In this document: piece after piece, positions 61,396 through 63,231 of the stretch
Layout of the letters: every line of letters begins with the position of its first letter
Position numbering within the stretch: the first letter of the stretch is position 1
Notes under the pieces: generated by a model
What the model saw: only the letters and a program-made list of their open reading frames with translations
The model's database searches: none
What the model was told of the DNA's origin: nothing
Made by a program: the position numbers and the translations under genes
Source of the DNA: Lysobacterales bacterium
Lineage (GTDB): Bacteria > Pseudomonadota > Gammaproteobacteria > Xanthomonadales > Xanthomonadaceae
Reading direction: 5' to 3'
Length of the DNA: 64,000 nucleotides
Assembly: GCA_031419075.1 (NCBI GenBank)
Contig: JANOKD010000069.1
Coordinates: 2,313 to 66,312 of the forward strand

Positions 61396-63231
61396 ATGAC
61401 GCAAGCCCTTGATTCTTCGTCGGCGCTGTCGGCCCCACTGCCATCACCCGCACCCGCGGTCGCCGAGGTGGTCGGCGACGACGACGTGCGCTTCGCACGC
61501 GGGCCACGGTCGTACCGGGTGCGCGGGCTGGCGCGCTGTCTGTCGGCGGAGTCGTTGAAGGTGACGCTGCGGCTATCGTCGGGTGATCGCCTGCACCTGG
61601 ACACGCTCGATCTGTATCAGGCGCGGTTGCGTGCTGCGTTCGCGAAAGCCGCCGCTGTGGAACTGGGCGTGGCCGAGTCTGTGATTGCCGGCGATCTGTC
61701 GGCGCTGGTGCTGGCGCTGGAGCCGCTGCAGGAGGCGGCGATCCGCGGGGCGCTGTCGCCGGACACTTCGGCGGTGTTGCCGGTGTTGAGTGAAGCCGAA
61801 GAGGCGGCCGGGTTGGCGCTGCTGCGCGATCCGTGTCTGGCCGAACGTATCGTGTCCGACGTGGAAGCGGTGGGCGTGGTCGGCGAGGGTGTGAACGCAC
61901 TCGTTGGTTACTTGGCGATGGTGTCGCGTCTGCTGGACCGGCCGCTGGCGATCTTGATCCAGTCGACCAGTGCGGCCGGCAAAAGCACGCTGATGGACGC
62001 GCTGCTGTCGCTGATGCCGGAACGCGAACGCGTCCACTACTCAGCGATGACCGGGCAGAGTCTGTTCTATATCGGCGAAGGCGATCTGCGGCACAAGATC
62101 CTGGCGATCGCCGAAGAGGAAGGCGTGCGGCAGGCGGCGTATGCGCTGAAACTATTGCAATCGCAGGGCGAACTGACGATTGCCTCGACCGGCAAAGACC
62201 CGGCAACCGGGCGGCTGATTACGTCGGAGTATCGGGTGGAAGGCCCGGTGATGCTGTGCCTGACGACCACGGCGATCGATATCGACGAAGAACTGCTCAA
62301 TCGCTGCCTCGTGCTCACCATCAACGAAACCGCCGAGCAGACGGCCGCGATCCAACAGCGCCAGCGCCTGGCGCGGACGCTGGACGGACTGCAGGCGAAG
62401 GTGCGCAGCGATCACATCGTGAGCGCGCACCGCGCGGCGCAGACGCTGCTGCGGCCGCTGGCGGTGGTGAACCCGTTCGCGGAATCGCTGACGTTCGCAA
62501 GCGACCGCGTGCGGCTGCGCCGCGATCACGTGAAGTATCTGGCGCTGATCGACGCGATCGCGCTGCTGCATCAGCAGCAGCGGCCGGTGCGGACGCTGGA
62601 GGTCGACGGCGCGGCCGTCGAGTACATCGAGGTGACGCGGGGCGATATCGCGTTGGCGAACCGTCTGGCGCACGCGGTGCTCGGTCGAAGTCTCGATGAG
62701 TTGCCGCCGCAGACGCGGCGGGTGTTGTCGTCGCTCGATGCTTGGGTGCGCGAGCAGGCAGGCGTGAGCGGCGCAGCGCGTGGCGATGTGCGCTTCACGC
62801 GGCGTGCGGTGCGTGCGGTGTTGGGCTTGTCGGATACGCAGCTGCGCGTCCATCTCGACCGGCTGGTGCAGCTTGAATACGTCGCCGCCCACGGCGGGCG
62901 GATGGGCCAGTGCTTCAGCTACAGCCTGCTGTTCGACGGCGACACCGATGCGGACGCGCCGCAGTTGATGGGCCTGAGTGACGAAGCCGAGGCCGAAACC
63001 GTCGAAACCTCGCGGGGTAAATCGACAACCTCGCGGGGGTCAGGGGCCAACCTCGCGGGGCAAAACGGCAACCTCGCGGGGCGGTTGCGGGGCGATTGCG
63101 GCCCGGTTGCGGGCACCTCGCGGGGTAGCGAATCAATCAAAAATCCCACGAAAACAAGGCTGAACGGCCATTCGTCGGCATCGGCAGGAAAAAACGCACG
63201 TAGCAGGCCGCTACCGGCGACGGAGCACTGA
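61396..63231 (+). CDS. AAA+ ATPase/helicase-like protein with C-terminal winged helix (C-terminal half of CHC2-primase-type element proteins)
   Basis: GGAGG RBS then ATG; Walker A STSAAGKS, Walker B ILAIAEE, ELLNR Arg-finger-like, wHTH-like FTRRAVR..LGLSDTQLRVHLDRLV. Confidence 0.75.
   Translation: MTQALDSSSALSAPLPSPAPAVAEVVGDDDVRFARGPRSYRVRGLARCLSAESLKVTLRLSSGDRLHLDTLDLYQARLRAAFAKAAAVELGVAESVIAGDLSALVLALEPLQEAAIRGALSPDTSAVLPVLSEAEEAAGLALLRDPCLAERIVSDVEAVGVVGEGVNALVGYLAMVSRLLDRPLAILIQSTSAAGKSTLMDALLSLMPERERVHYSAMTGQSLFYIGEGDLRHKILAIAEEEGVRQAAYALKLLQSQGELTIASTGKDPATGRLITSEYRVEGPVMLCLTTTAIDIDEELLNRCLVLTINETAEQTAAIQQRQRLARTLDGLQAKVRSDHIVSAHRAAQTLLRPLAVVNPFAESLTFASDRVRLRRDHVKYLALIDAIALLHQQQRPVRTLEVDGAAVEYIEVTRGDIALANRLAHAVLGRSLDELPPQTRRVLSSLDAWVREQAGVSGAARGDVRFTRRAVRAVLGLSDTQLRVHLDRLVQLEYVAAHGGRMGQCFSYSLLFDGDTDADAPQLMGLSDEAEAETVETSRGKSTTSRGSGANLAGQNGNLAGRLRGDCGPVAGTSRGSESIKNPTKTRLNGHSSASAGKNARSRPLPATEH
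63007..63125 (+). repeat. Iteron-like 11-bp direct repeats ACCTCGCGGGG
   Basis: Copies start at 63007, 63028, 63050, 63071, 63115 (spacings 21, 22, 21, 44). Confidence 0.85.

Follow-up and report, generated by a model that had tools for sequence, protein, structure and literature searches.

A two-tier array of phased direct repeats inside an MCM-like helicase gene of a Lysobacterales bacterium: candidate iterons of the helicase's own winged helix and of a putative replication origin

The stretch of DNA analyzed here (the window) comprises 64,000 nucleotides of a Lysobacterales bacterium (NCBI GenBank assembly GCA_031419075.1, contig JANOKD010000069.1, positions 2,313 to 66,312 of the forward strand). 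It contains a gene encoding a predicted MCM-like helicase, and the 3' end of the respective open reading frame (ORF 61327-63231) carries an array of short direct repeats that follow each other at intervals of one or two helical turns. According to the analysis described below, these repeats are likely to be iterons recognized by the C-terminal winged helix of the helicase in which they are encoded, and they may constitute a replication origin. The features of the helicase gene are as follows:

63007-63125, plus strand: iteron array, eight direct repeats that share the core T(C/T)GCGG (repeat finding and exact match search)
61396-63231, plus strand: helicase gene, 611 amino acids (aa) from the ATG at 61396 or 634 aa from the ATG at 61327 (ORF, AlphaFold2 model and Foldseek)
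62800-62928, plus strand: predicted winged helix-turn-helix coding region, residues 469-511 of the 611-aa form (AlphaFold2 secondary structure)
About 62827-62865, plus strand: predicted recognition helix LSDTQLRVHLDRL (AlphaFold2; every iteron class has its own helix sequence)
63126-63200, plus strand: A-rich stretch of lower GC content, GAATCAATCAAAAATCCCACGAAAACAAGG ... GGAAAAAACG, a weak candidate for an unwinding or bending region (GC content and AT skew)

The array includes five exact copies of the word ACCTCGCGGGG, located at positions 63007, 63028, 63050, 63071 and 63115 exclusively on the plus strand and separated by 21, 22, 21 and 44 bp. Since three degenerate copies occupy the 44-bp gap, namely CGGTTGCGGGG at 63082, CGATTGCGGCC at 63093 and CGGTTGCGGGC at 63104, the array consists of eight phased sites in total with the spacing series 21/22/21/11/11/11/11 bp; an 11-bp period across 63076-63113 was also detected by repeat finders. 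A search of the whole 4.02-Mb assembly yielded only two exact copies of ACCTCGCGGGG outside the array, both on other contigs, and the presence of five exact 11-mers within 119 bp, with two more in 4.02 Mb, therefore excludes chance. With respect to the reading frame of the helicase, copies 1, 2 and 5 are translated as TSRG and copies 3 and 4 as NLAG, and the degenerate copies are spread over all three frames. A first-pass annotation made from the sequence alone had reported the five exact copies with their spacing, the degenerate copies in the gap and the alternation between TSRG and NLAG; the match search and the translation of the ORF confirmed this description, and they resolved the degenerate copies into three with an 11-bp period.

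The helicase was identified by fold comparison only. Sequence libraries provided a weak match to the P-loop family AAA_29 (Pfam) and none in NCBIfam, and zero matches were obtained for the helicase sequence in a PDB sequence search, in PHROGs and in phage genomes. AlphaFold2, supplied with an alignment of 50 sequences, gave a model with a mean predicted local distance difference test (pLDDT) value of 76, which comprises an N-terminal beta-barrel, an AAA+ core with the Walker A motif SAAGKS, a C-terminal winged helix composed of two helices (469-476 and 480-492) and two strands (496-499 and 508-511), and a disordered tail. The tail is formed by residues 524-611, for which disorder is predicted by pLDDT values of about 30 (below 50), and the iterons encode residues 538-577 within this segment. 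When the model was compared with the PDB by Foldseek, the best matches were MCM2/4/7 and archaeal MCM proteins (E 1e-9 to 1e-6), and further matches included the poxvirus D5/E5 primase-helicases, NrS-1, ORC/Cdc6 and SaPIbov1 Rep (8tch_B).

The helicase family contains more than 8000 homologs, many of which are 75-90% identical to the query and most of which are located on short contigs. Members with less than about 65% identity are mostly 1000-1100 aa in length and carry an N-terminal CHC2 zinc ribbon (Zn_ribbon_DnaG), a DnaG catalytic core and a Toprim domain. The protein of the window represents a short form without this primase half, which is otherwise found in its closest relatives, all of them Lysobacterales where named. 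In view of the MCM-like AAA+ fold, the winged helix and the primase-fused relatives, the protein is predicted to be a replicative-type helicase-initiator of the MCM-like AAA+ group with a C-terminal winged helix. A comparison of window positions 61327-61900 with long forms (e.g. 4601-7642 of locus L018) indicated that the entire zinc-ribbon/Toprim half is gone in the short-form relatives and that the iterons are kept. Within the long forms, the linker between primase and helicase is hypervariable and of low complexity, as seen from the collapse of identity between loci L060 and L070 at 3809-4046.

The conservation of the array was analyzed in 31 genome and 54 metagenome loci that had been picked by peptide patterns located elsewhere in the protein and are hence unbiased toward repeats. 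A de novo 8-mer repeat finder was applied to each gene tail. The phased architecture turned out to be common to about 70 homologs with identities of 40-100% in the anchor region, including short and long forms as well as a homolog encoded on a Pseudomonas aeruginosa plasmid. It is composed of one to four copies at 21 bp, often with a 22-bp step, followed by four to five contiguous copies at 11 bp, which corresponds to the spacing series 21/(21)/22/11/11/11/11. Spacings of 11, 21 or 22 bp accounted for 218 of the 302 spacings in 70 homologous gene tails, whereas control segments of equal length contained only about 2% phased spacings (3/175 in the helicase core and 4/176 in the recombinase gene). 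The phasing is thus present in homologous elements, which the first-pass annotation had named as a check on its interpretation.

The repeated word itself varies by subfamily, the observed versions being ACCTYGCGGGG, CCTCGCTA, CCTCGTGG, CCTYGCA, CCTTCCGG, GTTCGCGG, GGTCGGG (the subfamily that includes the P. aeruginosa plasmid), TTGACCCC and AAGTCGGA. Arrays of the ACCTYGCGG class can be aligned without gaps, and conservation in this alignment is confined to the word and does not include the spacers; depending on the frame, the word is translated as TSRG/TLRG, xLAG or PPRG/PPCG. Since the word is read in three frames, the copies change together and the phasing is kept across subfamilies with different words, these data clearly indicate that selection acts on the DNA, as the first-pass annotation had proposed, and that the protein tail merely tolerates the array.

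A further conserved segment, the pyrimidine-rich TTCTTCCTTCTTTAGTCGCTGCTG, is located about 40 to 100 nt past the array in the iteron classes C to G (e.g. L024, L026 and L050). It encodes the peptide (F/L)PSL(V/A)AA, which is followed near the C-terminus by ...ARSR...NGH, and it is absent or different in the short form of the window. This segment may represent a protein motif, for instance a partner-binding peptide, or a part of the cis element.

Besides the helicase, the products of two adjacent genes come into consideration as readers of the array:

60893-61285, minus strand: XRE/Cro-C1-type helix-turn-helix (HTH) regulator of 130 aa, divergently oriented (HTH_3, E 7e-13)
63233-64000 and on to about 64264, plus strand: XerC-like tyrosine recombinase of 343 aa with a GTG start 2 nt past the helicase stop (Phage_integrase, PRK01287 XerC-like); the full xer ORF corresponds to 2545-3576 of L008, a locus that includes the contig extension past the window

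Sorting the winged-helix sequences by iteron class yielded a distinct recognition helix for each class, given here after the respective iteron:

ACCTYGCGG: SDTQLRVH
CCTCGCTA: SDTPLRLH
CTCGTGG: S(D/E)KQLRVH
CCTTCCGG: (S/N)(H/N)SQ(L/V)A(V/L)H
GGTCGGG: GDTQLK(L/I/V)H
TTGACCCC: SYPQVRRH
AAGTCGGA: GNTQLKIH

The area under the curve (AUC), by which we express how well pairwise protein identity predicts membership in the same iteron class, was 0.92 for the recognition-helix segment and 0.90 for the winged-helix domain. The corresponding values were 0.76 for the helicase core, 0.75 for Xer and 0.59 for the XRE regulator.

Moreover, the winged helix and the array are swapped together as a block in natural recombinants. 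The loci L060 and L070 share 85-95% of their nucleotides through the primase, the helicase core (100% identity at the aa level) and xer (95% at the aa level), but this identity is lost in a block that starts shortly before the winged helix and ends at the stop codon, and the two loci have different iterons (CCTTCCGG versus GGTCGGG); the low-complexity linker between primase and helicase and the XRE region diverge as well. The loci L018 and L023 differ in iteron class, with Xer proteins that are 86% identical. The Xer protein of L050 is only 17-23% identical to those of L022, L049 and L060, yet the iteron class is the same, and iterons and winged helix of L050 are as in L022 and L049. A minimal pair is provided by L048 in comparison with its close relatives L014 and the window: in seven of eight copies, GG is replaced by TA at the same two positions irrespective of the frame, and the recognition helix SDTQLRVH of the window and L014 is changed to SDTPLRLH in L048 by the substitutions Q to P and V to L. 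The co-variation of the recognition helix with the repeat class and the joint exchange in recombinants support the first-pass proposal that the winged-helix domain is the partner of the array. It is accordingly considered likely, from sequence comparison, that the array is read by the C-terminal winged helix of the very helicase that contains it, presumably through physical binding of the domain to the repeats.

The cognate word formed no cluster above the non-cognate background elsewhere in the module, i.e. at the element ends, in the promoter region or downstream of xer. As an opposed downstream set was not found either, the array is regarded as a single-locus site and not as an element-end signal. 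The XRE regulator was rejected as the binder of the array on the basis of its low AUC value, and near-identical XRE HTH domains accompany the classes A, E and G, while class A makes use of at least three unrelated XRE types.

The MCM-like helicase fold, the primase-fused relatives and the analogy with the Staphylococcus aureus pathogenicity islands (SaPI), the staphylococcal cassette chromosome SCCmec and phage P4 lead us to favor, with caution, an interpretation in which the array consists of cognate iterons of the helicase winged helix and represents the probable replication origin of a putatively excisable element. In the mechanism envisaged, the module of XRE, helicase and Xer genes, together with the Rhs tip and the immunity gene located upstream, would form an integrative element. 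Upon expression of the helicase, its winged helices would bind the array, i.e. two to four sites separated by two helical turns and subsequently four to five contiguous sites at one per turn, all of which would lie on one face of the DNA because of their one- or two-turn spacing. The bound sites would nucleate an MCM-like hexamer beside the A-rich stretch 63126-63200, where the duplex would open and the replication of the excised circle would start. Priming could be performed by the fused DnaG-type primase in the long-form relatives, whereas the short form would need a host primase. The presence of these sites inside an ORF would be tolerated because the encoded tail is disordered and subject to little constraint at the protein level.

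The A-rich stretch shows a minimum GC content of 0.30 in 20 nt, compared with 0.63 for the window, and an AT skew of +0.43 to +0.46. Several observations weigh against an origin at the array or against its assignment to the winged helix. The AT-rich region beside the array is weak in the family as a whole, since the mean GC content at +0 to +70 past the array dips only to 0.56-0.59, with values of 0.65-0.74 in the flanks. No DnaA box (TTWTNCACA) was detected in or near the module, although self-loading helicase systems do not require such boxes. A second, opposed set of iterons as in SaPI is missing, all copies of the array having one orientation; inverted cognate words were counted 19 times within 350 bp downstream, compared with 10.7 expected from non-cognate words, and they occupy no conserved position. 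A circular form was not indicated by terminal overlaps in any of the fetched loci, including those that span whole contigs, and a viral contig collection contained two partial matches only, both at contig ends. In addition, the copy in the window is devoid of a primase domain, and the module is single-copy in the source genome. Finally, part of the co-variation could be plain linkage because no more than about 80-100 bp separate the array from the region that encodes the winged helix; the xer start, however, is equally close to the array and shows no co-variation.

The array might be bound by the winged helix and yet serve regulation or maintenance instead of the initiation of replication, for instance as a roadblock or operator acting on read-through into xer, in copy control by handcuffing or as a pairing site comparable to a centromere; such functions are rather unlikely, but they retain an appreciable share of the probability. 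They would fit the conserved distance of about 110-150 nt from the array to the helicase stop and xer start, the tight coupling of the xer start to the helicase stop region, and the weak AT-rich element that is accompanied neither by a DnaA box nor by an opposed iteron set. The contiguous 11-bp repeats also recall centromeres of the R1 parC type, but the module consists of XRE, helicase and Xer only, and neither a ParR/ParB adaptor nor a ParM/ParA NTPase is encoded alongside the array. Furthermore, no sigma-70-like promoter was found between the array and xer, and in the characterized systems, the iterons of helicase/primase proteins that end in a winged helix serve as origins (PMC9371898, PMC7581432). 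The other proposal of the first-pass annotation, an accessory site of the recombinase, is disfavored by the comparative data. An arm-type site that organizes the synapse of the Xer-like recombinase for excision and integration would fit the position of the array about 110 bp upstream of the recombinase gene. Direct repeats upstream of a recombinase gene are typical of the internal recombination sites (IRS) of Tn4430 and Tn5401, which are used by TnpI, and the direct repeats of integron attI are comparable. The iteron class is nevertheless predicted much less well by Xer than by the recognition helix, and Xer proteins with 95% (L060/L070) and 86% (L018/L023) identity adjoin different classes and others with 17-23% identity (L050 versus L022/L049/L060) the same class. 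The word forms no inverted pair of the core type in the vicinity of the array and no second cluster in the module, the 343-aa recombinase of the Xer type has no extra arm-binding domain, and better candidates for the crossover exist, i.e. a conserved 34-nt inverted repeat about 1.3 kb away past xer and, at the core-end motif of rhs, the junction between units, so that the accessory site is judged to be improbable.

Two explanations dispense with a protein that reads the array. The repeats could be a slippage-prone tandem repeat of low complexity in a disordered tail, kept alike by unequal exchange and without any cis function, and the variation of the 21-bp unit from one to four copies among relatives as well as the predicted disorder of the tail would be in line with this assumption. 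However, relatives with as little as about 40% identity retain the phasing and the two-tier architecture, the word is homogenized and the spacers are not, the frame-shifting 22-bp step and the 11-bp run are nonetheless retained, and changes of the word coincide with changes of the recognition helix, which renders slippage highly improbable. The repeats could also act as RNA, with paired copies forming mRNA hairpins that tune the translation of the coupled recombinase gene. Indeed, among the iteron words only that of class A, CCUCGCGGGG, is quasi-self-complementary (CCTCG and CGGGG in CCTCGCGGGG), so that any two copies could pair as RNA, and the array of the window folds better than shuffled sequences (z = -2.3). 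By contrast, the arrays with CCTTCCGG (z = -0.07) and GGTCGGG (z = -0.93) are neither self-complementary nor better than shuffles, and the conserved feature is the helical phasing and not base pairing. A function as RNA therefore has very little plausibility, and a search for RNA families in the contig tail gave no credible match.

Systems in which the winged helix of a helicase-initiator reads an iteron origin are already known. The Rep proteins of SaPI are self-loading helicase-initiators, the C-terminal winged helix of which recognizes island-specific iterons just downstream of rep, and a primase is sometimes fused (PMC9371898). The module described here resembles the SaPI Pri-Rep-ori arrangement in the predicted self-loading hexameric helicase-initiator, the winged helix and the short iterons at the 3' end of the initiator's own gene (PMC9371898; bioRxiv 10.64898/2026.10.17.759575), in the separate or fused state of the primase (PriRep5), in the presence of repressor and recombinase genes on an integrative element, and in the structural match to SaPIbov1 Rep. 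However, the SaPI iterons have a length of 5-6 nt and are arranged downstream of the ORF in two opposed sets around a clear AT-rich center, whereas the present words of 8-11 nt are located inside the ORF in one orientation, with a 21/22-bp tier, an 11-bp tier and a weak A-rich stretch. Packaging and helper-phage genes are not included in the module, and sequence similarity to SaPI Rep is not detectable. In the case of SCCmec, the C-terminal domain of Cch2 binds direct-repeat iterons in the short stretch that separates cch2 from the recombinase gene ccrC (PMC7581432). Common to both systems are a recombinase-mobilized integrative element, an MCM-like or self-loading helicase (Cch/Cch2) and the order of helicase, iterons and recombinase. 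They differ in that Cch2 uses three intergenic iterons of 5 nt and SCCmec combines a serine recombinase (Ccr) with resistance cargo, in contrast to eight sites in coding DNA, an Xer-type tyrosine recombinase and a cargo of toxin tip and immunity gene in the window.

In the alpha protein of the satellite phage P4, a DnaG-type primase is joined to a helicase and a winged helix (PMC2777425). The long-form relatives share this order of a DnaG-type zinc-finger/Toprim primase, a P-loop helicase and a C-terminal winged helix, and P4 is likewise an integrative element with a tyrosine recombinase, but the P4 helicase belongs to superfamily 3 and the fold of the present protein matches MCM best. P4 contains two separated clusters of type I iterons, ori and crr, whereas a single cluster inside the gene was found here. 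Another origin embedded in an initiator gene is that of phage lambda, in which the iterons in the O gene follow each other at about two helical turns, are succeeded by an A/T-richer segment and are located where the gene encodes a flexible, poorly constrained segment of the protein. The lambda O protein is not a helicase and recruits DnaB through P, and its iterons are inverted-repeat sites of about 19 bp that are read in one frame, in contrast to the sites in three frames in the C-terminal tail of the present helicase. The plasmid pRN1 needs 166 bp downstream of its primase-helicase gene (PMC4234260). Genes for XerC/D-like recombinases have been described next to polymorphic-toxin and polyimmunity loci (Zhang et al. 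2012, PMC3482391), but that study is confined to the adjacency of the recombinase and describes no primase-helicase, iterons or replicative module. This remark on XerC/D beside polyimmunity loci was the only literature found on the module near Rhs or CdiA genes. The new aspects of the present system are accordingly the placement of the array within coding DNA, where it is read in three frames and has a unidirectional layout of two tiers, a large helicase/primase family for which no description was found in the literature, and the occurrence in modules attached to polymorphic-toxin genes.

The putative cargo is located directly upstream of the module:

59250-60760, plus strand: low-GC Rhs C-terminal tip and putative immunity gene (ORFs, GC content)

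The tip belongs to an Rhs protein of 2369 aa and extends from about the core-end motif RAYDYNLGRF to the stop at 60284, and the putative immunity gene follows at 60266-60760. The GC content of both (0.39-0.55 at 59200-60850) contrasts with that of the adjacent module and the rhs core (0.63-0.72), which points to different origins of cargo and backbone. The contig ends about 750 bp past the recombinase gene, and since no rhs-like fragment is present within the 745 bp past xer, the right end of the element is not reached on the contig. A homolog was detected in only 2 of 19 genomes of the same genus, and the module is therefore accessory.

The order of toxin gene, immunity gene, XRE, helicase and Xer recurs in the loci L009 and L010 and on the P. 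aeruginosa plasmid; the metagenome-assembled genomes (MAGs) with this order are a Lysobacter MAG, in which orphan Rhs-CT and immunity genes are located downstream, and a gammaproteobacterial MAG with two tandem modules. Regarding the wider distribution, members of the family follow Rhs genes in those Lysobacterales loci that were examined, and on the P. aeruginosa plasmid they follow a CdiA/TpsA gene; homologs are also present on plasmids of Burkholderiaceae and Ralstonia. In the case of the P. aeruginosa plasmid pPA1609-475 (L096, NZ_CP090650.1, 161176-176678), a long-form module is positioned behind tpsA2 (TpsA2/CdiA-like) and an immunity gene. Two tandem copies of this module follow each other at a period of about 8.2 kb, the unit additionally contains toxin-antitoxin genes of the RelE/ParE and VbhA types, and iterons with the word CCGGTCGG are spaced at 21/11/11/11 bp in the helicase tail.

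On a broader scale, the array could tentatively be seen as the origin of a widespread, undescribed family of self-replicating episomes with an Xer-type recombinase that carry toxin-tip/immunity cassettes, dock at the core-end motif of polymorphic-toxin genes and use winged helix and iterons as an incompatibility or specificity cassette, a scenario that we consider possible but doubtful. If it applied, docking at the conserved core-end motif would build 'orphan' arrays, the exchangeable block of winged helix and iterons would allow several elements to coexist, even in tandem, and an origin would be written through a protein-coding tail in all three frames. An autonomous replication of toxin-gene-associated modules would have a bearing on how Rhs and contact-dependent inhibition (CDI) loci acquire tips and accumulate orphan cassettes, and the swappable block suggests that incompatibility groups may exist among integrative elements, beyond plasmids. 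The analysis provides the module with a specific, testable cis site that is paired with an identified candidate trans-acting domain. It also adds a clear example from nature in which a DNA signal is superimposed on a coding sequence, with a word of 8-11 nt kept in three frames, and the concerted switch from GG to TA that is matched by two substitutions in the recognition helix represents a ready series for studying winged-helix specificity.

With regard to the ends of the units, the starts of the tandem units of L016, at 4566 and 9523, coincide exactly with the sequence that codes for the core-end motif QRYYDPTIGRF of Rhs. Direct repeats of about 140 nt with homology to the rhs core end flank the units in L009 (969-1105, 6310-6450 and 11847-11983) and L013 (294-430 and 5762-5898). 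These tandem arrangements fit an insertion or duplication at the core-end motif, which might proceed by site-specific or homologous exchange.

Additionally, a 34-nt sequence, CGCGGCTTAACCGCTGCGCGGTTCAAGCCGACGC, is located 3' of xer at 3747-3780 of L008, corresponding to about 64435-64468 in window numbering and thus past the window end, and contains the imperfect inverted repeat GGCTTAACC ... GGTTCAAGCC. At least one copy with 97-100% identity is present in each of L013, L027, L009, L015, L020 and L022. The modules sharing this sequence have different iteron classes and are only 47-60% identical in the winged-helix region at the protein level. It often occurs twice in direct orientation, about 500 bp apart, and is single-copy in the source genome; judged from these features of the sequence, it may be the core site of the recombinase. 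Two dif-like sequences in inverted orientation were also noticed past the window end, at about 3865-3900 and 3978-4008 of L008, the first reading GGTGCGCATAA-CGCCAC-GTTATGTCGCA on the reverse strand and the second GCCGCATAA-CACACG-TTATGTCTTCG. The left arm of the first of them is identical to the XerC arm of Escherichia coli dif.

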